Shown one piece after another: positions 1 to 10,965 of a stretch of DNA of 57,255 nt (the first letter of the stretch is position 1; each line of letters starts with the position of its first letter). Below the pieces are notes generated by a model. That model saw nothing but the letters and a program-made list of their open reading frames with translations, made no database searches and was not told the DNA's origin. The position numbers and the translations under genes were made by a program. This DNA comes from a virus (lineage: Duplodnaviria; Caudoviricetes), in the IMG/VR virus record IMGVR_UViG_3300049489_000428, positions 1 to 57,255 of that record. One strand, given 5' to 3'.

Positions 1-59
1 GCAATTACAGTGGGGTTGCCGCTACCTACCCAAAGCAACACGATTAGAACATAGATCAT
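1..59 (-). CDS. partial small exported/membrane protein (runs off the window)
   Basis: ATG at 59 with GAGGA SD; reads MIYVLIVLLWVGSGNPTVI. Confidence 0.45.
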   Translation of the reverse strand, partial: MIYVLIVLLWVGSGNPTVI

Positions 60-67
60 TTTTATCC

Positions 68-196
68 TCAATAGTAGATTCGAACATTCTTGAATGGTTG
101 CACAAATTTTCCGTTGTGCTCGAATATTTCGCAATTGCGTTTTGCAAACCATTCGATAAAAAACAGCGGCAGAATTTTACACCATGATCGCAACAT
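68..196 (-). CDS. 42-aa hypothetical protein (not in ORF track)
   Basis: Hand translation MLRSWCKILPLFFIEWFAKRNCEIFEHNGKFVQPFKNVRIYY*; tiles tightly between neighbours. Confidence 0.5.
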   Translation of the reverse strand: MLRSWCKILPLFFIEWFAKRNCEIFEHNGKFVQPFKNVRIYY

Positions 197-197
197 A

Positions 198-401
198 TTA
201 AACCCCTAGCGCGACTTGTTGATTAGGCTGCCAGAAAATCACGATATACCGATAACCCTTTTTGATCTGCGGCAGATCACGATTCGACAGATAGGGACCG
301 TTGATAATCTTGAAATCCTTGCCCGCGTTCCAATCATTCAATGCTTGTTGCTGCGAATGATAGTTGCGACCATAAGCGGGACGAATAAAAAGAGTGCTCA
401 T
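198..401 (-). CDS. hypothetical phage protein
   Basis: PAYGR..W..GKDF pattern; AAGG SD; tiled operon. Confidence 0.7.
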   Translation of the reverse strand: MSTLFIRPAYGRNYHSQQQALNDWNAGKDFKIINGPYLSNRDLPQIKKGYRYIVIFWQPNQQVALGV

Positions 402-410
402 GTTAACCTT

Positions 411-566
411 TCAGGAGTTAGCAGTTTCAAAAGCCTGACGAAGCAAATTCAACACACGTTCTTGCCTTCGCAGGTTTTCTAGATCGATTTCCGTGTCGCG
501 GATCATCTCTTGCGTAATTCGCAATTCTTGCTCAATCTGTTCAAGTGGGGGGAGCAAATGTCGCAT
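411..566 (-). CDS. small coiled-coil protein
   Basis: Start trimmed to MRHLL, just after the upstream stop; heptad-like E/Q/L/R-rich sequence. Confidence 0.6.
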   Translation of the reverse strand: MRHLLPPLEQIEQELRITQEMIRDTEIDLENLRRQERVLNLLRQAFETANS

Positions 567-568
567 GA

Positions 569-817
569 TTAACCTTTCAGAAAAATGACGATGAGAAGTG
601 CAAATTGGCCGATGATTCCGATTACTGATCCGACAACGTATGCCCAAAGTTTAACATAAATTTCCTGAATTAGGCAAGCGACCAGACCAATAAGAAGCAG
701 AATAACGGAGGCAGCAGGAGCAGTTTCACCAGTTTGCAATGCTTGAATGATCGCAGGAACCGCGCTCACCTGCAAGCAAACTGTACCCAGGAACCCGGCA
801 AATTTTGCGTGTTTCAT
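569..817 (-). CDS. 3-TM membrane protein, SemiSWEET/PQ-loop-like
   Basis: 82 aa, three hydrophobic helices, G..GT.....SAVPAIIQALQTG resembles PQ-loop helix 1. Confidence 0.55.
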   Translation of the reverse strand: MKHAKFAGFLGTVCLQVSAVPAIIQALQTGETAPAASVILLLIGLVACLIQEIYVKLWAYVVGSVIGIIGQFALLIVIFLKG

Positions 818-969
818 TGTATTCTACCCTTGAGCAGCAGATAAACAATGGTTGCAAGAGAAATTGCAAAGCCTAGCAGGCCAAATTTGGCAAGTGTGAG
901 TAAACACCTATTCCAAAAATCCTCAACCCCCCAAACGGCGTAACCTATTAATTTTGTGTGTTTTGACAT
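814..969 (-). CDS. small membrane protein, probably leaderless
   Basis: MSKHTKLIG...; ATG lies 6 nt downstream of the -10 box; ATGA overlap with next gene. Confidence 0.6.
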   Translation of the reverse strand: MSKHTKLIGYAVWGVEDFWNRCLLTLAKFGLLGFAISLATIVYLLLKGRIQ

Positions 970-975
970 GAGCCT

Positions 976-1004
976 ATTATGTGCGCACCCTAGAATCCTG
1001 TCAA
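976..1004 (-). promoter_or_regulatory. sigma70 promoter
   Basis: TTGACA-17-CATAAT. Confidence 0.75.
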
Positions 1005-1014
1005 TAGACTTTGC

Positions 1015-1028
1015 TTGATCTAGATCAA
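1015..1028. promoter_or_regulatory. FNR/Anr-type box
   Basis: TTGATCTAGATCAA matches TTGAT-N4-ATCAA. Confidence 0.65.
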
Positions 1029-1069
1029 ATATCTTTTTGCAAAAACCGTTGACACCCCAATTTTTGGTG

Positions 1070-1133
1070 GGTACGCTACGCGGCGCGTAAGTCATTGATT
1101 TTAAAGGGTTTTTTCTTTGTGGTCATCTATATG
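1070..1133. repeat. 64-bp intercassette repeat, copy 1 (IHF site 1088-1114)
   Basis: GGTACGCTACGCGGCGCGTAAGTCATTGATTTTAAAGGGTTTTTT..GGTCATCTATATG. Confidence 0.95.
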
Positions 1134-1141
1134 ACTGCGAG

Positions 1142-1153
1142 CCGACGAACGGT
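1142..1153 (-). promoter_or_regulatory. AlgR-like (LytTR) box
   Basis: ACCGTTCGTCGG on the minus strand; recurs six times in the region. Confidence 0.5.
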
Positions 1154-1168
1154 AGTTGACAAATACAA

Positions 1169-1196
1169 GAGCCCGCGGTAGCTACTCCGCGGGCTC
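1169..1196 (-). terminator. intrinsic terminator
   Basis: GAGCCCGCGG/CCGCGGGCTC stem, U-rich tail on the minus strand. Confidence 0.75.
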
Positions 1197-1211
1197 AGGG
1201 GTCACTAACGA

Positions 1212-1274
1212 TTACCATTCGGGCCGTTCAGGTCTTAGGCCATTCCACCTCAGTTTAGCTGCGAGGTTCAGCAT
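1212..1274 (-). CDS. possible 20-aa peptide MLNLAAKLRWNGLRPERPEW
   Basis: Fills the gap between the upstream stop and the terminator; weak SD. Confidence 0.3.
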   Translation of the reverse strand: MLNLAAKLRWNGLRPERPEW

Positions 1275-1281
1275 CGCGATT

Positions 1282-1566
1282 CTACATAAACCCGTAACGC
1301 ACGATGTAAGCGAAAATCACAACCAGAATGCACCGCATGAAACCTGTAACAAGCGAGAATGTATAATCTTGATCCGCTTTAGTCGCTTTGAATGTGAGAA
1401 CGGCAACAAGCGTTGACCCTACGTAGGCTTGCAACATCGTGACTCTAGGAACGCCATAAAGGTCTGGCATAATCAGATTCCACGAGTGAGCCGCCGCCCA
1501 GGCCCAAAAGAAAACCAGAATGACGGTAAAAACGATTCCAAGAACAATCTTAATGGTCTTTTCCAT
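1282..1566 (-). CDS. 3-TM membrane protein
   Basis: Three hydrophobic segments; tiled in operon. Confidence 0.7.
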   Translation of the reverse strand: MEKTIKIVLGIVFTVILVFFWAWAAAHSWNLIMPDLYGVPRVTMLQAYVGSTLVAVLTFKATKADQDYTFSLVTGFMRCILVVIFAYIVRYGFM

Positions 1567-1568
1567 GA

Positions 1569-1694
1569 TTACCAGACCTTGCTAATGAAGTGCCAAGCGA
1601 CGTAGACAAGGCCACCCAGAATTGCAAGTTTGACAACGATAGCGACAACGATGATGAGTTCGACGACGGTAAAGCCCGATTGAAAACGCTTCAT
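1569..1694 (-). CDS. 41-aa type IV prepilin-like mini protein (not in ORF track)
   Basis: MKRFQSG|FTVVELIIVVAIVVKLAILGGLVYVAWHFISKVW*; class III signal G|FTxxE; AGGGGA SD; coupled to upstream stop. Confidence 0.8.
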   Translation of the reverse strand: MKRFQSGFTVVELIIVVAIVVKLAILGGLVYVAWHFISKVW

Positions 1695-1695
1695 T

Positions 1696-1881
1696 TTACT
1701 TTCCCCTGTTAGTGGAACGACGAGCCTTGATGTCGCGGTTCGCTTGCGCGCGAGCCGCAGCGTTGGATGCTTGTTGCCGAAGCGTACCGTTCGCCCGCGC
1801 TTTCGCGGTCTTACCGGAACCGGACAGGGGTTCCAAACCCTGAGCGATACGCCATGCGTTGATCTGTTCTTGCTTGGTCAT
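1696..1881 (-). CDS. small basic protein
   Basis: Start trimmed to MTKQEQ with AAGGA SD; R/K/A-rich. Confidence 0.7.
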   Translation of the reverse strand: MTKQEQINAWRIAQGLEPLSGSGKTAKARANGTLRQQASNAAARAQANRDIKARRSTNRGK

Positions 1882-2062
1882 TTCGGTTTCCTTTAGGTGG
1901 AGTGTTGTAAAGCCTAGGCTATCTTCGCAGCTCAATCGTCTGGTCTAGATCCGAGGATCGAAGGGCGGGAGAGTGGAAGTTAGCCTAGGTTACTCAATCG
2001 GCCATCGCGGTTTCCCATGTTCGCCTAAGCGGCTTTTGTCGGGGGAATGTGCTTAACCGATA
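1882..2062 (-). ncRNA. candidate structured 5' leader RNA
   Basis: About 180 nt between promoter and first ATG, with nested inverted repeats. Confidence 0.35.
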
Positions 2063-2068
2063 AGTTGA

Positions 2069-2110
2069 ATTATACGCGCGCCCACAAAATCGTCAATGAC
2101 CGTTCGTCGG
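2069..2110 (-). promoter_or_regulatory. sigma70 promoter with adjacent AlgR-like box
   Basis: CCGACGAACGGT-CA-TTGACG-16-TATAAT. Confidence 0.7.
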
Positions 2111-2154
2111 CTGACACCTAGCCGACAGACGGTAGTTGTTTTTTTGGCCAGCCC

Positions 2155-2218
2155 GGTACGCTCCGCGGCGCGTAAGTCCTTGATTTTAAAGGGTTTTTTC
2201 TGTCAAGTCATCTATATG
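2155..2218. repeat. 64-bp repeat, copy 2
   Basis: Aligns to copy 1 without gaps. Confidence 0.95.
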
Positions 2219-2264
2219 AATTTATTTGACAGTAAATGCGTCTCATTCTCATTTACAGGTAAAG

Positions 2265-2288
2265 CTATGGCCCCTTGCGGGGCCATAG
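2265..2288 (-). terminator. intrinsic terminator after A2
   Basis: CTATGGCCCC/GGGGCCATAG stem. Confidence 0.7.
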
Positions 2289-2305
2289 TCCTAAGTTATT
2301 ACAGG

Positions 2306-2701
2306 TTACACGGGGATCATGCCGTCCGTGTCGACCGTTTCCGGCTCCACCGGCTCACCGACCGGCTCAGCTTCGAACGCGAGAGCCGCAAGAATCAGCT
2401 TAAGCGCATTCTTGGGAGCCGCTTCGAGGCCGTCGAGCTTGTCGGAAGTGACGCCGATTTCATCGGCAATCTTTTGCACAAGTGCATTCTTGTGCACGAC
2501 CGGCGAACCATCCTTCGCCTTACGCTCGGCCTTCTTATAGACGCCTTCGCGCACGAGCTTGGCCACGACCGACTTAGTGGTCTTGCCGAACTTCGCCGCC
2601 ATCGCTTCCACGGTGGCCTTTTCGGGAGCCGCAGTGTAAGCGGCGACGAGTGCGGAAGTCTGTTCCGCGGTATAATTCACAACCTTAGCTTTTTCAGCCA
2701 T
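2306..2701 (-). CDS. A2: T5 A2-like pre-early DNA-binding protein
   Basis: NYT.E.T...Y, SVVAKL..EGVY.K, K..LV..IA, L..LE.A motifs and length match the T5 A2 family as recalled. Confidence 0.8.
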   Translation of the reverse strand: MAEKAKVVNYTAEQTSALVAAYTAAPEKATVEAMAAKFGKTTKSVVAKLVREGVYKKAERKAKDGSPVVHKNALVQKIADEIGVTSDKLDGLEAAPKNALKLILAALAFEAEPVGEPVEPETVDTDGMIPV

Positions 2702-2804
2702 TTTGTTTCCCTTTACAGGTAATTAGACGCTAGGGGAACAGTCGCATCGCGCTAGGCATCCCTGCCTCCAGACCCCATCGAATGTCATCCATCCGATAAT
2801 TTGA

Positions 2805-2856
2805 ATTATACGCTGTTCCGCCAGTCTGTCAACACACAAACATTGATTTAGATCAA
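2805..2856 (-). promoter_or_regulatory. sigma70 promoter plus FNR-type box (2843-2856)
   Basis: TTGACA-16-TATAAT; TTGATTTAGATCAA. Confidence 0.7.
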
Positions 2857-2897
2857 AAAAGATTTCGGCCAAACTGTTGCTATTCCATTTTCAAACG

Positions 2898-2961
2898 GGT
2901 ACGCTACGCGGCGCGTAAGTCATTGATTTTAAAGGGTTTTTTCTCGGAGGTCATCTATATG
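2898..2961. repeat. 64-bp repeat, copy 3
   Basis: Gap-free alignment to copy 1. Confidence 0.95.
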
Positions 2962-2966
2962 AGTGG

Positions 2967-2983
2967 AATGAGAATCATTCTCA
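2967..2983. promoter_or_regulatory. Fur-type box
   Basis: AATGAGAATCATTCTCA, 7-1-7 dyad. Confidence 0.6.
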
Positions 2984-2992
2984 CCTATAAGC

Positions 2993-3021
2993 AAAAATTA
3001 TCGCGGCTCGCGCCGCGATAA
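2993..3021 (-). terminator. intrinsic terminator
   Basis: TTATCGCGGC/GCCGCGATAA stem with T-run on the minus strand. Confidence 0.75.
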
Positions 3022-3022
3022 C

Positions 3023-3499
3023 TTAGGCCAACCGCGCATTTGCCTTGTGCGCGTTAATGCAAGTGATTCCCATTTGCCTCATGGTTCGCAACACGGGGGC
3101 AGCGTCGTCGAACATAATGAAATGCGCTTTCACAAACTGTTTTAGGTTTCGCAACGGAGCTAGCCATTTCCTTTTATATTCGCCGTCGCCGGATTTGTAA
3201 TGCTTCACGCCGCGGCATTGGTCGCGCGACATTATCTTAGCTGCGGTCAGACCATGATCGCGCAAGAAATCATAATCACATTTCTTCATATCGCGCGCGG
3301 TCAGAATCCAAACCTTTTCACCGCGAGCGATCAGATCGCGCATAACATCGGCGAGAGGTAGCAGAGTGTCGAGTGCTACATTCTCCGGCGTATGGCGTTC
3401 AATGTATGCGGCCAGGTTTAGCGTGCCGTCTGGATTGTTCGGCGTGCGATGTTTCGAGTTAATGACAGTCTCATCGAGATCAAAAATAAAAACGCGCAT
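3023..3499 (-). CDS. HAD-superfamily phosphatase
   Basis: FDLDET motif I, LTAR motif II, K, MFDD motif IV; start MRVFIF with GGAGG SD. Confidence 0.85.
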   Translation of the reverse strand: MRVFIFDLDETVINSKHRTPNNPDGTLNLAAYIERHTPENVALDTLLPLADVMRDLIARGEKVWILTARDMKKCDYDFLRDHGLTAAKIMSRDQCRGVKHYKSGDGEYKRKWLAPLRNLKQFVKAHFIMFDDAAPVLRTMRQMGITCINAHKANARLA

Positions 3500-4176
3500 T
3501 ATTTCCTCCGTTGAACAAGTTGCCACGGCATAGCATGGATTTTATTAGTCAATCGTTTTTGCTTGCGACGAATCACGCGAGCAAGAATCGCGCATTCGAT
3601 TTCGCAATCCTCAATTGCCGTATGCGATTCTGCGAACGTCGGATTTTGCGTCAGATAAGCATAAACAGATTCCGCGCTAGTGCGAACATTGCCGGCGGGT
3701 GAGACAAATCCGTTAGCTTCGCACCATGCGCGATATTTGTTAGTATTCACCAGATCAACGCAAGCCGATAGCCACAAATCCACAAATGCGATTTTGTGTT
3801 GCAAAAATTTATCGGTCATTCCGCAATAGTGCATTGTCTCCGTTAGTGCGTTGCGATCAAATGCGATGTTGTACGCTGCGACAGTGCGAACATTGTGTGA
3901 GTCGATCAGTGCATTAAAGTCGCGGCGAATTTCCGAGAATGATTGCAGTTTAATGCTACCATCGGCAAGCGAGGGAATGTAATGCGTGAAAGTCTTTTTC
4001 GAGTAGTATGCGCCAAGCATCAAATCGGGATTAGTGATAACTTCGCGCACGGCAAAAGACCTGCGGTCGATTTCATTTCCCTTACGGTCGCAAATGATGA
4101 CGCCGAAATCATAAACGAGTTTAGGCGAAATGCCGATTGTCTCAGTGTCAAAAACTGCAAAATTCTGTTGCCTCAT
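3499..4176 (-). CDS. DEDDh 3'-5' exonuclease
   Basis: FDTET, AYNIAFD, HTAIED motifs. Confidence 0.9.
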   Translation of the reverse strand: MRQQNFAVFDTETIGISPKLVYDFGVIICDRKGNEIDRRSFAVREVITNPDLMLGAYYSKKTFTHYIPSLADGSIKLQSFSEIRRDFNALIDSHNVRTVAAYNIAFDRNALTETMHYCGMTDKFLQHKIAFVDLWLSACVDLVNTNKYRAWCEANGFVSPAGNVRTSAESVYAYLTQNPTFAESHTAIEDCEIECAILARVIRRKQKRLTNKIHAMPWQLVQRRK

Positions 4177-4526
4177 TTTACCAATGCTCCCGAATAGGCG
4201 TAGCCGAAAATTCTAATATGGTGGCGTTGAAAAAATCGCCCGTGCTGTTCGCGTTGTGTGCGTTTCGATTTTTGAATCGCTTGCAATTGGTGGATCATTT
4301 CATGCAAGATTAATTCGCGCAAATCAGAATCGGGACAAGCTAGGTTAATGGTTATGCGATGTTTTCCATCCTTGCAAATGTCCCAATAGCCGGCGAAATC
4401 GGAATCGGGCATCGTGGTAAAATAGAACCTCGGTTTCGGCAAACGCGATTCAAAGAATCGGATGTTAGCCAATTCCCAGATACCCTGAATGTAGAGCCGC
4501 ATGGCCCTTGTGTTGTGCGTTCCCAT
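4173..4526 (-). CDS. SprT-like zinc metalloprotease
   Basis: LHEMIH ... HGRFF; N.RFF...LP pattern. Confidence 0.85.
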   Translation of the reverse strand: MGTHNTRAMRLYIQGIWELANIRFFESRLPKPRFYFTTMPDSDFAGYWDICKDGKHRITINLACPDSDLRELILHEMIHQLQAIQKSKRTQREQHGRFFQRHHIRIFGYAYSGALVK

Positions 4527-4533
4527 AAGTTGA

Positions 4534-4575
4534 ATTATACGCGCCCCAGTTAGCTTGTGAAGTACCGTTCGTCAG
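4534..4575 (-). promoter_or_regulatory. sigma70 promoter with adjacent AlgR-like box
   Basis: CTGACGAACGGT-AC-TTCACA-16-TATAAT. Confidence 0.65.
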
Positions 4576-4697
4576 TTCGTTAAGTATATGATTTCATTAC
4601 ATATTCACCCAGTAGACCTAGCTCACACACAAAAGACCTTTTAGAATCATAGAGTTAGCGAGCCGACGAACGGTAGTTGCACCCGCCATTTTGGGCG

Positions 4698-4761
4698 GGT
4701 ACGCTACGCGGCGCCTAACCCCTTGATTTATAAGGAGTTTTTCCTCACGGTCATCTATATG
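4698..4761. repeat. 64-bp repeat, copy 4
   Basis: Gap-free alignment; IHF core AATCAAGGGGTTA on the minus strand. Confidence 0.9.
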
Positions 4762-4828
4762 TGTTTGCATACGTTAACGTATACGTAGATTGCAATCAAC
4801 GTATACGTTGCGATGCGAACGATTATCA

Positions 4829-5050
4829 TTACATTAACCATTGTGTGATACCGTATATATTTGCGGTTGCGAAAACGCTATTAAGCAAAAGAAGCGGAGT
4901 GTTCTTAATCCGCCAAGAATGGATAACGTAAGCGGCGGCACCAATTAAGAAGGGAATATAACCGAACCCGGACACGCCAGTATGCGAGGCCACCATAAAA
5001 GCGCCAAGCATTCCGAAGCAAGCGCCTATCCATTCTAGTGTGCTCCCCAT
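4829..5050 (-). CDS. small 3-TM membrane protein
   Basis: Start MGSTLEWIG coupled by TAATG; hydrophobic. Confidence 0.7.
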   Translation of the reverse strand: MGSTLEWIGACFGMLGAFMVASHTGVSGFGYIPFLIGAAAYVIHSWRIKNTPLLLLNSVFATANIYGITQWLM

Positions 5051-5250
5051 TATGCTACCTTCCGCATTTCGGCGGCAATCTTCAGCAGGCATTCGTTTAC
5101 AGTCTTGGCACCGTGCCGTGCGAGAATCAATCCCTTAATGCGGGAGATACGGCTGCGAGTATTGAAATCGGTAGGATTAACCAAAGTTGCAATGTTCCGC
5201 GTAATCATGCCGAGGGTCTTTGCATCCATCAGAAGTTGGAATTTGTCCAT
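5050..5250 (-). CDS. hypothetical protein
   Basis: MDKFQLL start follows the upstream stop. Confidence 0.6.
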   Translation of the reverse strand: MDKFQLLMDAKTLGMITRNIATLVNPTDFNTRSRISRIKGLILARHGAKTVNECLLKIAAEMRKVA

Positions 5251-5252
5251 GT

Positions 5253-5429
5253 TTACCATCCCATGCGGAAGTTAATCAGTTCGACGGTATATTCTACCGA
5301 TTCATTGGCATTGAAGCAAGCGCCGAGAGTCTTACGAACAAGCGAATTTCCAAACAGGTCGGGATTGAATTCGCCCATCGTGAAAACGTCATTTACGAAC
5401 AGGTCGAACAGCGGATTGGTATTGAGCAT
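5253..5429 (-). CDS. 58-aa hypothetical protein (not in ORF track)
   Basis: MLNTNPLFDLFVNDVFTMGEFNPDLFGNSLVRKTLGACFNANESVEYTVELINFRMGW*; first gene after the promoter. Confidence 0.6.
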   Translation of the reverse strand: MLNTNPLFDLFVNDVFTMGEFNPDLFGNSLVRKTLGACFNANESVEYTVELINFRMGW

Positions 5430-5454
5430 TTGTGTTCTCGCTTGGTATGATTGA

Positions 5455-5517
5455 ATTATGATCGCGTTGTGCTAGTGTGTCAAGCGTTTCGCGTGACATT
5501 TATTTGATCTAGATCAA
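5455..5517 (-). promoter_or_regulatory. sigma70 promoter plus FNR-type box (5504-5517)
   Basis: TTGACA-17-CATAAT; TTGATCTAGATCAA. Confidence 0.7.
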
Positions 5518-5558
5518 AAAAGATTTTGTCCAAGCTATTGCATTACGCGCTGCGCGCG

Positions 5559-5622
5559 GGTACCCTGCGGGGCGCGTAAGCCCTTGATTCCCAAGGGATT
5601 TTCTTACGCGGTCATCTATATG
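5559..5622. repeat. 64-bp repeat, copy 5
   Basis: Most diverged copy; same length; IHF core and GGTCATCTATATG retained. Confidence 0.9.
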
Positions 5623-5624
5623 AG

Positions 5625-5858
5625 TTAAAAGCTATCGTCACCGTAGTAACCATAATCTTCGTCTGTCCCCCATCCGGCCGAGCGCAGGACGTCTGCATCA
5701 GCCTCGGCGTCAGAGTTAAATTGATCCTGCTCATCATCCCCATCATAGAGGTCGAGGTCTACACCACCACATTCCGGGCATTCATCCGATACATTGTGCA
5801 GATCAGTAACGTCGCGCTGGAATACTTCACCACATTCGAGGCATATCAAGGTCGCCAT
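5625..5858 (-). CDS. zinc-ribbon protein with very acidic C-terminus
   Basis: CLEC...CPEC; D/E-rich tail; AGGAG SD. Confidence 0.75.
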   Translation of the reverse strand: MATLICLECGEVFQRDVTDLHNVSDECPECGGVDLDLYDGDDEQDQFNSDAEADADVLRSAGWGTDEDYGYYGDDSF

Positions 5859-5885
5859 TTGTTTTCTCCTGTTGTGATAGGTGTA

Positions 5886-5953
5886 AGTATATATGCTATG
5901 AGTTATAGGTCAACTACCGTTCGTCGGTTAGTTAATGATAATCATTATCATTA
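5886..5953 (-). promoter_or_regulatory. promoter, AlgR-like box and perfect Fur-type box
   Basis: TTGACC-16-TATACT; ACCGTTCGTCGG at 5916-5927; TAATGATAATCATTATCATTA at 5933-5953. Confidence 0.7.
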
Positions 5954-6031
5954 GGGGAGGGCGGTTAGTTGACCTGGTGGTATGGCATAGCTACAGGACC
6001 AACTTTCGCGAAAAATTTATAAAAATTTCTG

Positions 6032-6136
6032 ACCCTAAATTGCAAAGGGCCGCATGGGCCGCATGGGCCGCATGGGCCGCATGGGCCGCATGGATTTATT
6101 ACCCTAAATTGCAGAGGGCCGCATGGATTTATTACC
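6032..6136. repeat. (GGGCCGCAT)x5 tandem array nested in a ~35-bp duplication
   Basis: 9-mer array at 6047-6091; ACCCTAAATTGCA.AGGGCCGCAT..GGATTTATTACC occurs twice. Confidence 0.9.
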
Positions 6137-6180
6137 ACCCACACTTATTTCATATAATTCAACCAAGCATAAAAATATAC

Positions 6181-6209
6181 TTGATTTCGTTAATCTTATG
6201 ACGTATAAT
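6181..6209 (+). promoter_or_regulatory. late promoter
   Basis: TTGATT-17-TATAAT. Confidence 0.7.
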
Positions 6210-6215
6210 AAAAGA

Positions 6216-6680
6216 ATGGGAACTAATATTACACCAATCACACCAGAGTATATTCCAATCTCTCCAGAATCATTGGAAATAGCCAATACATATCTTCAAT
6301 GTCAAGATGTGTCAGAAACAGCTAAACTTCTAGGATTACCTCTAGATCAAGTAGCTGCATATCTGGCAAAGCCTGACGTCAAAGAATATGTCACCGCAGT
6401 GTATTTAGATTCTGGATATAGAAATAGATTCAAACTAGGGAAAATCCTAGATGAAGTAATAGATAAAAAACTAATAGAAATGCAAGAAGCGGATATCGGT
6501 TCATCCAAAGATATTCTAGATATTTTAGCGATGGTTCATAAGATGCGAATGGATGAACTCGCAGCTATAACTGCGCTAGAAAAAGCTAGAAGTGCTGGAC
6601 CGAAGAAACAGACTAATATTCAAATAAATAATCCAGCTGGATCTATTTTTGAAAAGTTGATGGATAATGATGAATTGTAA
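6216..6680 (+). CDS. terS: terminase small subunit
   Basis: T5-like SPE.L.IAN.YL, D.GY.N, SSKDI.D.L...HKM; start trimmed to MGTN. Confidence 0.85.
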   Translation: MGTNITPITPEYIPISPESLEIANTYLQCQDVSETAKLLGLPLDQVAAYLAKPDVKEYVTAVYLDSGYRNRFKLGKILDEVIDKKLIEMQEADIGSSKDILDILAMVHKMRMDELAAITALEKARSAGPKKQTNIQINNPAGSIFEKLMDNDEL

Positions 6681-7909
6681 TGCCCCAAAATATATTTAAA
6701 GATCCCACAACAGGGAATGAGATCAAAGTACCAAAAGTAACAAAAAAACTAATTAAAGCAAATCAGAAGTTTGATACTTTATACAATTTAGGAACAATGG
6801 AATTAAATGCTGGTAGGCATAGTACAGCATTCGACTGTTTTAAAGCAGCACTAGAGCTTGGTGTCTCAAAGGAATGCCTGCTAAATATGTCCACCTGTTA
6901 TAAAGTTCTAGAGAACGAAGGTAAAGCTAAAGAGATTCTAGCTAGCATAATTAAAAACTATCCAGAATTTCCACTAGCGTATAACAATTACGGACTTATT
7001 AGATATGATGATGGTGAATTCGATGAAGCTATCGGGCACTATAATAAAGCTATCTCCTTATGGCCGGAATATGCTGACGCTCACTGGAATCACGCCTTAG
7101 CGTTACTTATTAAACGTTTTGATACTGGAGTACCAAATCCTTTAGCATATCAAGAGTTTGAATGGAGATTTAAAAAATCAAACGCTGTTGCGTTAGCTGA
7201 TGTAACTTCTCCGCGCTGGAATGGTGAGTCGCTTCATGGTAAAAAGCTGCTATTTATGTGTGAGCAAGGATTTGGTGATATGTTCATGTTTATGAGATAT
7301 CTCGAATTGTTACCTATGGATTCCGTATATGTGCACTTTCCTAAAGAGGTTAAAGATTTTCTAGGAGCGTATCAGTATGTGGAGTTTAGTAATATTCCGC
7401 ATGACTATCATATTCCAATTATGTCTTTGCCTAATGTTATGGGCGAGTATTTTCCTTCAGAGCCTTACCTCGATTTTTCTTCGAGTGCATGGAACTTCGG
7501 CGGTGGTAAAAACATTGGTATAGTATGGAAAGGTAATCGCGCTCACGCAAATGATAGAAATCGCTCTATGCATTTTAGAGATTTCTTCCCACTATTTGGT
7601 TTAGGAAAGGTTTGGTCTTTGCAGTATGGAGTTCCTGTTCAGCGACATGCAAAGGATATTCATGAATTGGAAATCCGTAGTTTTATTGATACTGCCAACT
7701 ATATTGCTGGGTTAGATCTAGTGGTTACTGTAGATACTTCTGTAGCTCACTTAGCTGGAGCAATGGGTAAGCCTGTGTTAGTGGTAATGCCAACTCGTGG
7801 GTTGGATTGGAGATGGGGTTCTACAGGTGATAAAACGCCTTGGTATCCTACGATGAGACTTTGTAGGGATAGAGGTCAGATGATTAAGATGGCGTCGGAG
7901 ATGTTATGA
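6680..7909 (+). CDS. TPR-domain GT9-family glycosyltransferase
   Basis: TPRs (AYNNYG, AHWNHA); EQGFGD, IGIVWKG, DLVVTVDTSVAHLAGAMG, WRW...TPWYP. Confidence 0.9.
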   Translation: MPQNIFKDPTTGNEIKVPKVTKKLIKANQKFDTLYNLGTMELNAGRHSTAFDCFKAALELGVSKECLLNMSTCYKVLENEGKAKEILASIIKNYPEFPLAYNNYGLIRYDDGEFDEAIGHYNKAISLWPEYADAHWNHALALLIKRFDTGVPNPLAYQEFEWRFKKSNAVALADVTSPRWNGESLHGKKLLFMCEQGFGDMFMFMRYLELLPMDSVYVHFPKEVKDFLGAYQYVEFSNIPHDYHIPIMSLPNVMGEYFPSEPYLDFSSSAWNFGGGKNIGIVWKGNRAHANDRNRSMHFRDFFPLFGLGKVWSLQYGVPVQRHAKDIHELEIRSFIDTANYIAGLDLVVTVDTSVAHLAGAMGKPVLVVMPTRGLDWRWGSTGDKTPWYPTMRLCRDRGQMIKMASEML

Positions 7910-8457
7910 GTTACGAAGCTTCGAAAGCAATGGCTCGCCGGGGCTCCGAGTTTCGGAAATTCTTTAAAGGTAGCGGAATTGACGTAGGTTGTGGTCCAGA
8001 TTCGGTAGCGCGCTGGAAGAAAAAATTCCCTATACGAAACGTACGAGAATGGGATTTAGCTGATGGTGATGGAGAATTGTTAGCGTCGGTTCCAGATTGC
8101 TCAGTTAATTGGGTTCACTCCTCCCATTCTCTAGAACATATGAGGTCTTGGCAGCGTGCTTTAGAGAACTGGACAAGAGTATGTATCAGAGGTGGCTATG
8201 TCATATGCAGTGTGCCTTCGTGGGAGATGTATGAACATCGCACTTGGCCTTCTCGCTTTAATAGCGACCATAAGCACGCATTTTCACTGGTGGAAAGCGG
8301 CGGACCCGTTGTACTTCTTAGTGAGAAAGTGCTAAATGAGTTTGGATCTGTGATTTTGTTAAGAGAAATTACTGACGGATATGATCCATCTGATTATAGT
8401 GATCAAACTCAAGGACCTGCAGAATGCTGCATAGAATTTGTATTGAGGACTAGATGA
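7906..8457 (+). CDS. class I SAM-dependent methyltransferase
   Basis: GIDVGCG and SSHSLEH motifs. Confidence 0.85.
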   Translation: MSYEASKAMARRGSEFRKFFKGSGIDVGCGPDSVARWKKKFPIRNVREWDLADGDGELLASVPDCSVNWVHSSHSLEHMRSWQRALENWTRVCIRGGYVICSVPSWEMYEHRTWPSRFNSDHKHAFSLVESGGPVVLLSEKVLNEFGSVILLREITDGYDPSDYSDQTQGPAECCIEFVLRTR

Positions 8458-8642
8458 AGTTACAAGAATTTTTAAATAATGGATTTAATCTAGGATGTGT
8501 TGAGTATCATTTGAATGTGCACTGCACGCCGCATGGATTAACAAAAGTGTCTATTCGTGGTAGCAGTCATTACGATTTAGAATGTGATGGAGTAATTGTT
8601 GGTGGAGAGGTTACTTTATTCGACAATCCCAAGGTTGAATAA
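8454..8642 (+). CDS. hypothetical protein
   Basis: Translationally coupled on both sides. Confidence 0.6.
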   Translation: MKLQEFLNNGFNLGCVEYHLNVHCTPHGLTKVSIRGSSHYDLECDGVIVGGEVTLFDNPKVE

Positions 8643-9943
8643 TGCTTGAGATTTCTCGTAGTGATGTATCAGCTACTGAATATCAAGTGTTTCCAGCGGA
8701 TAAGAAGTTTATTAAGTTATCGGTTGAGAAGTATTTGAAGTTTGGAGATAAAGTAGCTAATAAACCACAAATTGCCATTATCAACGCTCTGCAAAATCCA
8801 AAATACAGATTTGTTACTGCAGCTATTAGTCGCAGACTTGGAAAGACTTACATTGCCAATATTATTGGGCATCTAGTAGCGCTTATGCCTGGAGCATCTG
8901 TACTGGTTATGTCTCCTAATTACTCGCTATCTGCAATTAGTTTTGATCTTCAGGTTGAGTTTGCTAAGAATACTGGTATTGAGATTACACGAAATAATGT
9001 TAAAGACAGAATACTTGAATTATCCAACGGTTCCTCGATACGTCTGGGTTCGGTTATGCAAGCAGATTCCGTCGTTGGTCGCAGCTACGATTTTATCATC
9101 TTTGACGAAGCGGCCCTTGCGGCTGAGGGTGAAAATGCCTTTCAAATTCAGCTTAGACCAACAATGGATAGACCAAATTCAAAAGCGCTATTCATCAGCA
9201 CACCTAGAGGTAAAAATAACTGGTTTGCAAAGTTCTTTTATCGTGGATATAGTACCGACTTTAAAGAGTGGTGCTCCATCAAAGCCGATTATAGAGAGAA
9301 CCCTAGAATTTTAGAGGCCGATGTTGAAGAGGCTCGTAGGTCAATGTCATCTGCGATGTTTAGGCAGGAATATGAAGCTGACTTCGCAGTGTTTGAGGGA
9401 CAGATTTTTAGATTCAATCAGGAATGTGTTGAGAATTTAAAGTTTATGGTTCCTCAGGAATTAGACGTATTTGCAGGAATTGACGTTGGTTTTAGAGATC
9501 CAACAGCTGTTATAATTTTAGGGTATGAGTTTAGTACGGGAAAATATTATGCACTAGAAGAATATCAAAATGCTGAGTCTACTACTAGTGGTCATGCTGA
9601 GGAAGTTCTAAAGTTAATAGAGAAGTATGGAATTTCTGCACTTTATATTGACCATGCGGCTGCGCAGACTAGAATGGACTGGGCATATGATTTTAATATT
9701 CAGACTTTGCCTGCTAAAAAATCTGTTTTAGATGGAATTGCTTTTGTACAAAATATAATTGAAAGAGACTTACTAATTGTAGATGAACATTGCAACAATC
9801 TTCTAGCTACATTAGATCAATACAGATGGGATCCTAATCCCAATTTAATAATGCAGAAACCTGAGCATGACCAATATTCGCATATGGCCGACGCTTTAAG
9901 GTACGGATTATATAGCTATAGTACTAGCACGGGGGTATATTGA
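8642..9943 (+). CDS. terL: terminase large subunit
   Basis: SRRLGKT Walker A, IIFDEAA, ISTPRG, GIDVG..D, H.ADALRY. Confidence 0.95.
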   Translation: MLEISRSDVSATEYQVFPADKKFIKLSVEKYLKFGDKVANKPQIAIINALQNPKYRFVTAAISRRLGKTYIANIIGHLVALMPGASVLVMSPNYSLSAISFDLQVEFAKNTGIEITRNNVKDRILELSNGSSIRLGSVMQADSVVGRSYDFIIFDEAALAAEGENAFQIQLRPTMDRPNSKALFISTPRGKNNWFAKFFYRGYSTDFKEWCSIKADYRENPRILEADVEEARRSMSSAMFRQEYEADFAVFEGQIFRFNQECVENLKFMVPQELDVFAGIDVGFRDPTAVIILGYEFSTGKYYALEEYQNAESTTSGHAEEVLKLIEKYGISALYIDHAAAQTRMDWAYDFNIQTLPAKKSVLDGIAFVQNIIERDLLIVDEHCNNLLATLDQYRWDPNPNLIMQKPEHDQYSHMADALRYGLYSYSTSTGVY

Positions 9944-10368
9944 AGTATATATTAATAGGATTACTGTTGTTCACCTTTGCTGTTTCAGCTACAGATTATC
10001 GATGGAAAATTAATCGCGTAATTGACGGTGATACAATTGCAGTTACAATTACAGAACTTCCACTTAATGTTATGCCTTCTATGGTTCGTATTGGAGGAAT
10101 TGATACTCCAGAATTAGATGGTAGAGCTAAATGTGAAAAAGAACGATTATTGGGTCAAGCAGCTGCAAAATTTACTAGTGACTTTTTGAAGAATGCTATG
10201 TATGAAAATAAGAATATTTCTTTCACTAACATTAAACGTGATAAGTATTCTTCTAGAGTAGTTGGAGATGTTAAAGTTGATGGTCAGGATTTAGGGAAGT
10301 TATTACTAGAGAAAGGTTTTGCTAAGCCTTACGATGGTAAAAGTAAAAAACCAGATTGGTGTTCATGA
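9940..10368 (+). CDS. thermonuclease (SNase) with signal peptide
   Basis: RVIDGDTI, RIGGIDTPEL, RDKY.R; hydrophobic N-terminus ending AVSA. Confidence 0.9.
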   Translation: MKYILIGLLLFTFAVSATDYRWKINRVIDGDTIAVTITELPLNVMPSMVRIGGIDTPELDGRAKCEKERLLGQAAAKFTSDFLKNAMYENKNISFTNIKRDKYSSRVVGDVKVDGQDLGKLLLEKGFAKPYDGKSKKPDWCS

Positions 10369-10373
10369 GAATC

Positions 10374-10406
10374 AGCCCGCATAGTTAAGCACTATGCGGG
10401 CTTTTT
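10374..10406 (+). terminator. intrinsic terminator
   Basis: AGCCCGCATAGT/ACTATGCGGGCT stem plus T-run. Confidence 0.85.
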
Positions 10407-10435
10407 GTTGTCGAAAGAGGATAAAAATTTTGCAC

Positions 10436-10465
10436 TTGCGTGTCGCTATCCTTTGGTAGTATAAT
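10436..10465 (+). promoter_or_regulatory. late promoter
   Basis: TTGCGT-18-TATAAT in the intergenic gap. Confidence 0.55.
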
Positions 10466-10515
10466 AGAAGAATAGAAATTTCAAGTGCGAAAATGTAAAC
10501 CTGGAACACAAAATA

Positions 10516-10965
10516 ATGGCAAATATTAATAGAGCACGATTACCTGTAAAATGGATTCGTGATATGAACAAGACTCGCTACCAAAAGGGCGACACTTGTG
10601 CAATATGTGGTACGAAAGAGGATATTGAATTTCACCACTACTACTCCTTAACATTGCTCTTTGAGAAGTGGTTAAAAGTTAACAATTTAACCATCAACAA
10701 CGATGACGATGTGCTTAACATTCGTGAACAGTTCAGTAATGAACATAAGCGAGAGTTATTTGGAGAAGTGGTAGATTTATGTAAAGCTCACCATGCCAGA
10801 TTGCACGACATCTACGGAGTTACTCCCATGTTGCATACTGCAGAAAAGCAGAAGCGCTGGGTTGGAATTCAGGCAGAAAAGCATGGGATAACTTATGAGT
10901 TTGTGGAACGACACGAAGATGTGGCTGAGCGAAAAATTAAACCCCGTTCAACCCATTATATCTGA
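10516..10965 (+). CDS. T5-like HNH nicking endonuclease
   Basis: CAICG..FHHY..LC..HH..LH..YG; syntenic between TerL and portal. Confidence 0.85.
   Translation: MANINRARLPVKWIRDMNKTRYQKGDTCAICGTKEDIEFHHYYSLTLLFEKWLKVNNLTINNDDDVLNIREQFSNEHKRELFGEVVDLCKAHHARLHDIYGVTPMLHTAEKQKRWVGIQAEKHGITYEFVERHEDVAERKIKPRSTHYI

Follow-up and report, generated by a model that had tools for sequence, protein, structure and literature searches.

The window that we analysed, a stretch of 57,255 nucleotides, comes from a distant T5-like phage: in protein comparisons its TerL is about 50% identical to that of Demerecviridae, and its DNA polymerase is about 46% identical to those of T5-like phages. A cassette array on the minus strand meets terS at a run of tandem decamers. 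The main genes and transcription signals of the array are as follows.

2306–2701, minus strand: cassette gene for a putative DNA-binding protein of 131 aa, with a match in 4 of 4 compared relatives
3023–3502, minus strand: cassette gene homologous to dmp, a T5 pre-early gene (HAD phosphatase; 33% identity to T5 Dmp, 175 aa, E 3e-20)
6047–6095, unstranded: tandem decamers (GGGCCGCATG)n at the border between cassette array and terS
976–1004, 2069–2096, 2805–2832, 4534–4561, 5455–5483 and 5886–5913, minus strand: inward (cassette) sigma70 promoters, 10–12 of 12 consensus positions in the promoter scan
1169–1196, minus strand: intrinsic terminator of the cassette upstream of copy 1 of the repeated element (terminator scan)
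2995–3024, minus strand: intrinsic terminator upstream of copy 3 (terminator scan)

The dmp homologue suggests a pre-early-like character for this region, and the gene at 2306–2701 was the sole cassette gene matched in all of the relatives L145, L146, L006 and L007. Between the cassettes lies a repeated element, of which a repeat search recovered five ungapped copies of 65 nt each, all on the plus strand and 78–100% identical to copy 1. A degenerate pattern of the element matched five times forward and never in reverse in the window, and a backwards-pattern control gave no matches. The initial annotation had described five copies of 64 bp without indels; the number and the absence of indels in the window were borne out, and the length is 65 nt by the repeat search, with an A in column 65 in four of the five copies.

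1070–1134, plus strand: element copy 1, with −10 TACGCT at 1072–1077, IHF core at 1088–1100, T-tract at 1109–1114 and box GGTCATCTATATGA at 1121–1134
2155–2219, plus strand: element copy 2, with −10 at 2157–2162 and IHF core at 2173–2185
2898–2962, plus strand: element copy 3, with −10 at 2900–2905 and IHF core at 2916–2928
4698–4762, plus strand: element copy 4, with −10 at 4700–4705, IHF core at 4716–4728 and an A5 tract; the last letter of the box is T, not A
5559–5623, plus strand: element copy 5, with −10 TACCCT at 5561–5566 and IHF core at 5577–5589

Each copy runs from a putative outward −10 and a GC-rich stretch through a canonical predicted IHF site to a 13-nt dyad box. With up to two mismatches, the box GGTCATCTATATGA was found five times at the element's right end against 0.40 expected, and none of 100 shuffles reached five. 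It is the best-conserved part of the element and is present in this phage only.

The copies occupy comparable positions in the array. Copies 1 and 3 have a terminator on one side (1196–1169 and 3024–2995) and a near-consensus inward promoter on the other (1004–976 and 2832–2805), copies 2 and 4 have a gene end on one side and an inward promoter (2096–2069 and 4561–4534) on the other, and a single base separates the end of copy 5 at 5623 from the stop codon (5625–5627) of the minus-strand ORF 5625–5858. This is the layout claimed previously, and the order of motifs given with it also agrees with the regulator boxes that we mapped.

1015–1028, 2843–2856 and 5504–5517, unstranded: FNR/CRP-family consensus palindrome TTGATCTAGATCAA, 3 found against 0.14 expected
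1142–1158, plus strand: AlgR-type box joined to a −35 (CCGACGAACGGTAGTTG; pattern search)
2094–2110 (minus), 2122–2138 (plus, degenerate), 4559–4575 (minus), 4663–4679 (plus) and 5911–5927 (minus): further AlgR-type boxes (pattern search)
2969–2983, unstranded: 7-1-7 perfect palindrome TGAGAATCATTCTCA, Fur-family-like, in the variable slot to the right of copy 3
2235–2254: degenerate box related to TGAGAATCATTCTCA

Both the FNR-type and the AlgR-type boxes of the initial annotation proved to be exact consensus matches, far above chance: the FNR-type motif TTGATNNNNATCAA occurs three times (0.14 expected), and the AlgR-type motif CCGTTCGTC, for which we used the consensus in the part of PMC4787818 available to us, occurs five times (0.13 expected), always within positions 1–6000. 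In all three modules that carry it, the FNR-type box stands 20 nt to the left of the outward −35; its distance to the inward −35 is 11, 11 and 21 nt (boxes at 1015–1028, 2843–2856 and 5504–5517, respectively). Along the array, the inward promoters switch alternately between AlgR-type and FNR-type. Upstream of the first promoter, the 19-mer at 5931–5949 has one mismatch to what we take to be the Fur-box consensus and is presumably a near-consensus Fur box. Judged by their sequence, the FNR, AlgR-type and Fur-like boxes near the element are genuine consensus matches.

The predicted IHF site is the centre of the element. All five copies carry WATCAANNNNTTR on the minus strand, and five of the six sites of this type in the window that passed an A-tract filter lie inside the element. 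Its geometry (A4–6, 8 nt, WATCAA, N4, TTR, where a TT precedes the AA of WATCAA by nine bp) is that of the lambda attP stretch used for comparison, which we take to be H′. Every one of the four IHF consensus elements listed in the accessible portion of PMC1874591 is present. We aligned 11 module copies from three phages and found that TAA, TTGATT, AAGG and TTTT are invariant, whereas the N4 and loop columns vary. These invariant columns appear to coincide exactly with the IHF consensus positions, including the TT kink step inside AAGG and the T/A tract, so that the earlier call of an IHF site is a strong one as far as sequence goes; the kink step accounts only partly for the conservation of AAGG. 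N4 reads nGAC in 62 of the 120 viral matches to the core pattern, a bias that the IHF consensus does not explain and that may reflect another protein or common descent. Other phages and plasmids also carry the core; a near-identical version lies beside the iterons of the Pseudomonas putida pND6-2 oriV, and another, with 31 identical nt, in a Vibrio plasmid. The core is a generic site that is not specific to this array. A search for HU/IHF-family genes detected none in the window and none in two relatives (86% and 100% complete); as a control, it recovered the family in 9 of 14 genomes. The predicted IHF site lies at about −126, −133, −134, −144 and −204 from the inward start sites, and this lack of a fixed distance argues against a single looping geometry.

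The −10 at the start of the element belongs to a putative sigma70-type promoter, which is directed away from the next cassette and has its −35 TTG outside the repeat.

1049–1054, plus strand: outward −35 of copy 1, TTGACA, 17 nt from the −10
2877–2882 (TTGCTA), 4677–4682 (TTGCAC) and 5538–5543 (TTGCAT), plus strand: equivalent outward −35 hexamers
2136–2141, plus strand: outward −35 of copy 2, TTGTTT, 15 nt from the −10, the sole off-spaced copy

Across the three phages, 9 of 11 copies have TTG at a distance of exactly 17 nt from the −10, with one TTT and one 15-nt spacing as the exceptions; at other offsets TTG occurs in at most 3 of 11. The spacers are 33% identical among these copies, against 94% for GG plus the −10. 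A further element copy, present only in source-run contigs, likewise has TTGACA 17 nt from its −10. The promoter scan did not list the outward promoter because TACGCT matches only three of the six consensus positions.

Related phages retain the module but not the genes. G001 has the layout of the window (minus-strand cassettes, then terS, a 409-aa ORF and terL), with three full module copies and one cut at the contig start, and G002 has three copies. The promoter-plus-IHF module is common to these two phages and stands between almost entirely different cassettes: structural genes gave 42–62% in tblastx, and only 2306–2701 and 4832–4972 were matched among the window's cassette genes. This fits the earlier suggestion that the repeat offers homology for cassette shuffling. 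In the relatives, 9 nt separate the −10 from the IHF core, against 10 in the window, and a second IHF-like unit takes the place of the 13-nt dyad box; the FNR-type, AlgR-type and dyad boxes are absent from their modules. Freedom from indels therefore holds among the window's five copies and does not extend to the relatives, and the reading of the fixed length as a sign of one helically phased complex is weakened.

The array extends beyond the window. A contig from the source run reaches 202 nt to the left of position 1, and at least 69 of these nucleotides repeat the stretch ending at 3001 (element tail and Fur-like box); at least one further copy therefore lies just left of the window. In a second source-run contig, the left flank of the element copy is different. 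In run X1, read depth was 39–46 in contigs over 1–6076 and 27.5–28.4 beyond, a 1.5-fold step that coincides with the tandem decamers at 6047–6095. Neither of the other runs showed it: depth was 2.4–5.6 over 1–6076 and 4.3–7.2 beyond in X2, and 3.9–8.3 and 4.1–14 in X3. The claim that the array is a terminal repeat and the first DNA to enter the host is thus left unsupported.

In the explanation to which we give about even chances, the 65-nt repeat forms the conserved core of a composite cassette with a regulatory role. This module would be a pair of divergent promoters capped by IHF, used again from one boundary to the next and offering homology through which cassettes turn over. The array would consist of early genes read by host RNA polymerase, with the repeat reused at every boundary and a pair of divergent promoters in each intergenic region. 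The stronger of the two, of sigma70 type, would face inward and serve the next cassette, and a weaker outward promoter (TTGnnn, 17 nt, TACGCT and a GC-rich discriminator) would point back at the previous one, the two sharing or mirroring a box for an activator, which is an FNR-type palindrome in some modules and an AlgR-type 9-mer in others. The repeat starts at the putative outward −10, and the predicted IHF site at its centre extends from about −3 to about +31 of that promoter. Assuming that the host has IHF, FNR and AlgR homologues, host IHF would bind there and make a U-turn, occluding the outward promoter and channelling activator and polymerase into the inward one; the bend may also draw the distal box closer to the promoters, together with the variable slot and the Fur-like or other sites that it holds. 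Since the module is nearly identical at every boundary, it would also give cassettes a stretch of homology through which they can be gained, lost or duplicated. The repeat, its motifs, their selective conservation, the homologous modules of the relatives and the turnover of cassettes are observations; IHF binding, outward promoter activity, occlusion and recombination at the repeats belong to the proposed mechanism.

An unlikely alternative is a small or antisense RNA gene, in which the outward promoter would produce a short RNA (about 30 nt to the T-run, or 100–160 nt to the next terminator) that acts by pairing, for example with the 3′ end of the preceding cassette, and the core would be an RNA hairpin or weak terminator and not a protein site. 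The conserved outward −35 and −10 are consistent with such a gene, as are the T-run after a potential plus-strand hairpin (terminator-like in copy 5, with a fold of −18.4 kcal/mol) and, about 160 nt past the outward unit in G001, a hairpin preceded by an A-run and followed by a T-run; in addition, 58 of the 120 viral matches to the core pattern form true hairpins in which a change on one arm is matched on the other. However, neither folding of the five copies nor covariation in the 11-copy alignment revealed a conserved RNA structure. The five copies fold at −1.9 to −18.4 kcal/mol into differing structures, only copy 5 having a stable hairpin, and the nGAC class, which includes copies 1–3, folds at −3.6 kcal/mol against −2.3 for shuffles. 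Hairpin covariation was 0.087 against 0.067 when shuffled, a value reached by 131 of 500 shuffles; 79% of cells pair in the hairpin itself, and 75% still do so when the partner is shifted by −1. No Rfam family reached threshold, and the core also occurs in a plasmid oriV.

The docking platforms of the initial annotation, on which host IHF, FNR/Anr, Fur and AlgR would load onto the first-entering DNA to sense host state, be titrated, or pace or shield entry, seem less probable still. They would suit the consensus sites for four host regulators within 6 kb, the pre-early-like region marked by dmp, the alternation of AlgR-type and FNR-type promoters, the depth step in X1 and a comparable proposal for T5 (see below). 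Yet the sites sit at ordinary promoter-proximal positions, where plain transcriptional regulation suffices, five to seven of them are too few to titrate abundant proteins such as IHF, and the depth step is absent from X2 and X3; nor is the platform conserved as a whole, because relatives lack the FNR-type, AlgR-type and dyad boxes. That the repeats are functionless remnants of serial duplication of one intergenic region is something we consider quite improbable. Longer repeat families (140 nt and 52 nt) surround the element and paralogous cassettes exist, in G001 and in source-run contigs, but columns 45–53 and the −35/−10 spacer are at background divergence while the consensus positions are invariant, and the promoter-plus-IHF part is kept in relatives whose TerL is only about 60% identical to that of the window. 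Least probable of all, and very doubtful, is a dedicated integron-like or att-like site at which a phage recombinase with IHF as cofactor actively moves cassettes. Such sites typically carry canonical IHF sites, an Escherichia coli copy of the core adjoins an integrase gene, and there is one element per cassette with all cassettes in one orientation; against this, ten cassette ORFs scanned gave no match to recombinase families, the element has no inverted core-type repeats, and its copies are all direct, with boundaries that coincide with promoter parts.

The initial annotation knew of no description of this architecture; two known systems, as far as the portions of the sources available to us go, come close to it. 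Promoter-early stem-loops (PeSLs) are repeated promoter/terminator cassettes flanking early ORFans in T4-like phages (PMC2839356, Arbiol et al. 2010; PMC4122927, Comeau et al. 2014). Like the element, PeSLs are described there as short composite motifs that recur among early genes, most of them orphans, which host RNA polymerase reads from sigma70-type promoters; the flanked genes differ among related phages, and modular shuffling by homologous recombination has been proposed. In those accounts a PeSL joins a terminator stem-loop to an early promoter facing the downstream gene, whereas the core of the element, from a T5-like phage, is a predicted IHF site with a −10 facing backwards, its stem-loop is weak and unconserved, and neither the terminators nor the inward promoters are part of the repeat. 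In the reading that we favour, the element would resemble the PeSLs of T4-like phages in offering homology by which cassettes turn over, a likeness of sequence layout and not of mini-circles or recombinant junctions. For T5 itself, DnaA boxes at a fixed 52-bp spacing on the first-step-transfer DNA were proposed to bind host protein on the incoming DNA (Davison, bioRxiv 10.1101/866236). Both cases involve the pre-early region of a T5-like lineage with dense untranslated repeats and palindromes; the T5 repeats are reported as clustered in three untranslated regions, whereas the element stands at each cassette boundary. The host protein proposed for T5 is DnaA and the candidate here is IHF, and the two repeats have no sequence similarity. 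A strict scan found no A-tract IHF site in T5 1–11500.

In bacteria, too, transcription units can end in extragenic repeats built around a central IHF site, namely RIP/BIME-1 in E. coli and Correia elements in Neisseria. These repeats belong to the host genome and are bordered by palindromic units or inverted repeats; they have no sequence similarity to the element, whose pattern gave only chance matches in one genome per species. Lambda H′ shares the whole arrangement of A-tract, 8 nt, WATCAA, N4 and TTR over 34 bp, with TT/AA kink steps 9 bp apart, but it serves site-specific recombination, whereas the predicted IHF site of the element is repeated at least five times beside promoters. At lambda pL, with its competing pL2, and at Mu Pe/Pc, an upstream IHF site stimulates a strong early promoter and occludes or represses a second one. 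Those are single sites in temperate phages; in the element, the competitor is divergent and is conserved together with the predicted IHF site as one repeated unit.

A 65-nt element recurs in the window in five ungapped copies, at 1070, 2155, 2898, 4698 and 5559, all on the + strand and 78–100% identical to copy 1. A degenerate pattern of the element returned these five forward matches and none in the control, and its right-hand box occurs five times versus 0.40 expected; a chance origin of the five copies is excluded. Columns 1–44 and 53–64 are nearly invariant among the window copies, and columns 45–52 are of unrelated sequence but constant length. The copies are placed among the genes, promoters and terminators in the way the initial annotation described, and most of its motif calls hold when judged by pattern counts and comparison with consensus sequences. 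We also aligned 11 copies from the window and from G001 and G002, two viral records of related phages, leaving out one spurious row (G002_rc12666); in this alignment the motif positions are better conserved than neighbouring bases. The fixed length that had been proposed is exact within the window genome but not across the lineage, as the relatives show one 1-nt indel and a replaced right block; they have 9 rather than 10 nt between the -10 hexamer and TAA. At the DNA level, positions 1–6200 had no match among 50,697 phage records, and two element patterns each gave no matches over viral contigs. A looser pattern matched five times in metagenome contigs and five times in a set of one genome per species; these matches lack the left block and were dismissed as AT-rich chance hits.

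The window comprises the whole of an IMG/VR virus record (57,255 bases), which is classified as linear, has a CheckV completeness of 51% and was assembled from a freshwater sediment metagenome. Its TerL is about 50% identical, and its DNA polymerase about 46% identical, to those of T5-like phages (Demerecviridae) of enterobacteria; comparisons of these two proteins found no named relative closer than Demerecviridae. Positions 1–6000 carry only short minus-strand genes and have a G+C content of 44–51%, against 34–51% (mostly 36–42%) elsewhere. To the right of the array, the + strand encodes terS (6123), a 409-aa TPR protein, terL, portal, a protease/capsid ORF and tail genes; replication genes follow these structural genes on the minus strand. 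The ORF at 3023–3502 is homologous to T5 Dmp, with 33% identity across 175 residues (E = 3e-20); in T5, dmp comes first among the pre-early genes of the terminal repeat. Given this homologue and its setting, it is reasonable to label the putative genes of 1–6000 as pre-early-type cassettes of a T5-like phage, although the cassettes run opposite to terS, unlike the T5 pre-early genes. Most cassette ORFs have no family match. The 131-aa cassette protein does not resemble T5 A2, 1–6000 contains no A1-sized ORF (the array extends past the contig end), and no loci related to the exonuclease gene were found. The 409-aa ORF (6680–7909) between terS and terL has TPR repeats and a weak glycosyltransferase-9 match, and G001 has an ORF of equal length at the equivalent place. 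A 630-aa ORF (12096–13988) has matches to two families, head maturation protease and major head protein, and may be a fusion of the two. The tail region includes a 2,398-aa ORF (19080–26276).

The element begins with GG and TACGCT (TACCCT in copy 5), which we read as the -10 hexamer of an outward promoter, facing back towards the previous cassette. In four copies a -35 hexamer (TTGACA, TTGCTA, TTGCAC or TTGCAT) lies exactly 17 nt to the left of the -10, outside the repeat; copy 2 has TTGTTT at a 15-nt spacing, and an extra element copy from sequencing-run contigs has TTGACA at 17 nt. Among the 11 aligned copies, the 17-nt offset holds TTG in nine and TTT in one, and one copy is off by 2 nt; any other offset accounts for at most three copies. 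Identity is 33% in the promoter spacers and 94% in GG plus the -10. A conserved TTG at 17 nt combined with a diverged spacer is the signature of a selected sigma70-type promoter, and we infer such a promoter, active on the + strand and pointing away from the next cassette. It is omitted from a promoter scan because TACGCT retains only T1, A2 and T6 of the -10 consensus. A GC-rich stretch, ACGCGGCGCG, follows the outward -10. In G001 (L145 2935–2963 and 4377–4405), a perfect TTGACA-17-TATAAT promoter lies on the outward strand about 100 nt before the outward TACGCT promoter, so that the outward direction there has two tandem promoters.

The element appears to be centred on a canonical IHF site. 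The available text of PMC1874591 describes a 34-bp site defined by WATCAA, a TTR four bp further on, a pair of AA steps at nine bp and, in the 5' half, an A-tract of 4–6; all four of these consensus features are present in the element. On the minus strand, AATCAA (WATCAA) is found in all five window copies and in 11 of 11 copies from the three phages; TTA (TTR) follows four bp 3' in every one, across an intervening N4 that takes seven different tetramers. All 11 have an invariant CCTT whose TT precedes the AA of ATCAA by 9 bp. The A-tract is A6 in copies 1–3, A5 in copy 4 and A4 in copy 5, each 8–9 nt before WATCAA. Across the alignment the invariant columns are TAA, TTGATT, AAGG and TTTT, and the variable ones are N4 and the three bases after TTGATT. 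The same spacing is found in a stretch of lambda attP, AAAAAA-8-TATCAA-4-TTG, which we take to be H' and in which TT occupies the same position. The pattern WATCAANNNNTTR has 11 matches in the window versus 5.0 expected, five of which are the element copies; with an A-tract filter the copies are five of six. No HU/IHF-family gene was found in the window, G001 or a 100%-complete relative (three records), and a host protein is therefore the candidate binder.

Cores of this kind are found well beyond these phages.

Occurrence of the widespread IHF-like core.
Viral contigs L026–L144: IHF-like core
L151, 1203–1233: IHF-like core
L150, 1501–1527: IHF-like core

A core pattern with 18 fixed bases matches in at least 119 viral contigs. 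Among the 120 distinct matches listed, 58 are ordinary hairpins whose arms change together and 62 are non-hairpin sites with nGAC in N4, before TTA. Near-identical cores lie beside the iterons of the P. putida pND6-2 oriV, and a core after ssb in a Vibrio parahaemolyticus plasmid is identical to copy 1 over 31 nt (compared by eye). Further examples are in Burkholderia, Variovorax and Ralstonia phages and beside an integrase in E. coli. The predicted IHF-like core is thus generic among mobile DNA of Proteobacteria, and the IHF consensus alone is insufficient for the nGAC preference of the non-hairpin cores and for the 31-nt Vibrio identity. Two or three tandem copies of a 27-nt IHF-like unit occur in L036 and L055 (near contig ends), L026, L126 and L127; a 27-nt period leaves no room for independent 34-bp IHF sites.

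To the right of the IHF site, the 13-nt box GGTCATCTATATGA is the best-conserved part of the element within the window phage. The conserved 131-aa DNA-binding protein is a candidate partner of this box. The box is absent from G001 and G002; in both, the first IHF-like unit is followed by a second at a distance of 34 nt. The variable slots beyond the box differ in content: a perfect 7-1-7 palindrome, TGAGAATCATTCTCA (2969–2983), or a degenerate version of it; ACGTATACGT palindromes; an AlgR-type box; or a stop codon. At the same place G001 has Fur-like palindromes of like kind, then a hairpin preceded by an A-run and followed by a T-run. Palindromes of this Fur-family-like 7-1-7 type (TGAGAATCATTCTCA and its variants) occur in the window at 2969–2983 and 5931–5949 and recur in corresponding regions of related phages: in G001 (L145 1425–1478 and 3144–3207), in T5 (L025 9653–9722), where they sit in the injection-stop region, and in two other records (L010 and L065); they may be a shared feature of T5-like terminal regions.

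The inward promoters, on the minus strand, are much closer to consensus: six match 10–12 of 12 positions. According to the available text of PMC4787818, the 9-mer CCGTTCGTC is the consensus of AlgR (LytTR). This predicted AlgR site has five exact matches in the window versus 0.13 expected, each 3 nt from a -35 hexamer. At the inward promoters at 5913, 4561 and 2096 it is on the opposite strand and 3 nt upstream of their -35 hexamers; it also precedes the outward -35 of copy 4, is degenerate before that of copy 2, and occurs again just to the right of copy 1. The inward promoters at 5483, 2832 and 1004 instead carry a perfect TTGAT-N4-ATCAA palindrome, a predicted FNR/CRP-family site (three versus 0.14 expected), 21, 11 and 11 nt, respectively, from the inward -35 and 20 nt from the outward -35 in all three. 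By our count its centre is at about -62.5 from the inferred outward start in all three, and at about -52, -52 and -62.5 from the inward starts, which fits a class I or II position. Across 976–5927 the AlgR-type (5913, 4561 and 2096) and FNR-type (5483, 2832 and 1004) promoters alternate strictly; both box types are candidate sites by consensus match. From these paired promoters and boxes, each intergenic region is predicted to be a divergent promoter unit with a shared or mirrored candidate activator box. Two inward promoters end 6–7 nt before the ATG of the first gene (CATAAT-6-ATG and TATAAT-7-ATG; 967–981 and 4524–4539, minus strand), so those early mRNAs would be leaderless or nearly so.

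RNA-level and peptide readings of the element were considered as alternatives. As an intrinsic + strand terminator it would need a GC-rich hairpin followed by a T-run, and copy 5 alone passes a scan for these; single folds of the five copies range from -1.9 to -18.4 kcal/mol, but four of them reach only -1.9 to -4.2 and fail the scan, and the real terminators lie outside the repeat. Nor is there a conserved structure: hairpin covariation was 0.087 versus 0.067 for shuffled alignments, and 131 of 500 shuffles reached the observed value. At a permissive threshold, Rfam gave only sub-threshold chance matches, none recurring at other copies or in relatives; one such match, anti-hemB over copy 4, scored 16.7 bits against a gathering score of 49.5. 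A short peptide on the + strand of the element was rejected, as frames and ends differ among copies. A sigma54 promoter (GG-N10-GC upstream of TTGC) was absent by eye.

The relatives bear on how the module is reused. G001 (90 kb, 86% complete) has minus-strand cassettes, terS, a 409-aa ORF and terL arranged as in the window, and true homologues of the outward-promoter part are present in G001 and G002. In tblastx comparisons with these and two further relatives, structural genes were 42–62% identical, and the only window cassette genes with matches were that of the 131-aa DNA-binding protein (2306–2701) and that of a small membrane protein (4832–4972). In G001 and G002 the promoter-plus-IHF module is accompanied by other cassette contents: the module is retained, and the genes that separate its copies are replaced. 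G001 has paralogous cassettes; contigs of the source run likewise contain a paralogous cassette, together with extra element copies, and show no junction that would prove exchange between copies.

The nearest known system is that of the promoter-early stem-loops (PeSLs) of T4-like phages, described in the available text of PMC2839356 and PMC4122927 as composite promoter/terminator motifs that flank early orphan genes and are proposed to recombine. As far as that text goes, PeSLs resemble the window system in two respects: a motif bearing a sigma70 early promoter is repeated among early orphan genes, and related phages differ by motif-flanked cassettes. They differ in having a stable terminating stem-loop within the motif, whereas the hairpin of the window repeat is weak and unconserved and its terminators lie outside; a PeSL is a terminator plus a promoter, and the window architecture is a divergent promoter capped by a predicted IHF site. 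A literature search of main texts found no work joining T5-like phages, repeated intergenic elements and integration host factor. The sole work found to treat phage T5, IHF and pre-early together was the Davison preprint (bioRxiv 10.1101/866236).

With an outward start about 7 nt after TACGCT, the 34-bp IHF site would span roughly -3 to +31 of the outward promoter. Our reading is therefore that the element forms one arm, the outward one, of a bidirectional promoter module, with a putative IHF cap. IHF and an open complex at the outward promoter would be mutually exclusive, so that IHF would silence the outward arm and favour the inward early promoter, and bending by IHF may draw the distal box, and with it the slot, closer to the promoter region. 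Among known systems, the nearest precedents are lambda pL/pL2 and Mu Pe/Pc, both with IHF. The IHF site and the inward start are not a constant distance apart (about -126 to -204 by our count), and we therefore do not claim a single looping geometry. Judged from its sequence, the element is most likely a building block for regulation and recombination, with a canonical IHF site at its centre. The interpretation in the initial annotation is partly supported, and a special docking platform for DNA entry is at most a candidate role. It is possible, but we think it improbable, that the region is a pre-early switchboard wired to the physiological state of the host, in which alternating AlgR- and FNR-type bidirectional units, IHF-capped on the outward side and with Fur-family palindromes beyond, would choose takeover cassettes on the first DNA in the cell, and IHF bends might shape or pace the incoming DNA. 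If the building-block reading holds, modular regulatory cassettes extend past T4-like phages to the T5-like pre-early region, and the first phage promoters are perhaps conditioned by host IHF and by FNR/Anr-type, LytTR-type and Fur-type regulators, unlike the usual picture of virulent T5-like phages. The module would then also offer a sequence handle for locating, in metagenomic relatives, the fast-evolving cassettes for takeover and anti-defence.

The window does not contain the whole array. In X1, a sequencing run that is the possible source sample, a contig extends 202 nt to the left of position 1, and at least 69 of these letters repeat the stretch ending at 3001; another run contig has a new left flank joined to an element copy. 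The array must therefore comprise six copies or more, and the contig end cuts it short. Assembler unitigs end precisely at element copies. Contig depths in X1 were 46.3, 39.1, 41.7 and 41.9 over 1–6076 and 28.4 and 27.5 over 6064–9000, a ratio of 1.5, as a possible terminal repeat would give; molecule ends are invisible to contig data. In runs X2 and X3 depths were alike on both sides (2.4–5.6 versus 4.3–7.2, and 3.9–8.3 versus 4.1–14; ratio of about 1). Tandem arrays of 8–10-mers lie just upstream of terS (6025–6136, unit (GGGCCGCATG)n), and run contigs have variant units at 6049–6090. Relatives have such arrays upstream of terS as well (L007 5829–6089 and 8659–8818; L006 6168–6401 and 8837–9055; L036/L055), with a unit sequence that differs in every one. 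These arrays resemble the DRD repeats found where the T5 terminal repeat ends, and could mark a repeat boundary or a terminase site.
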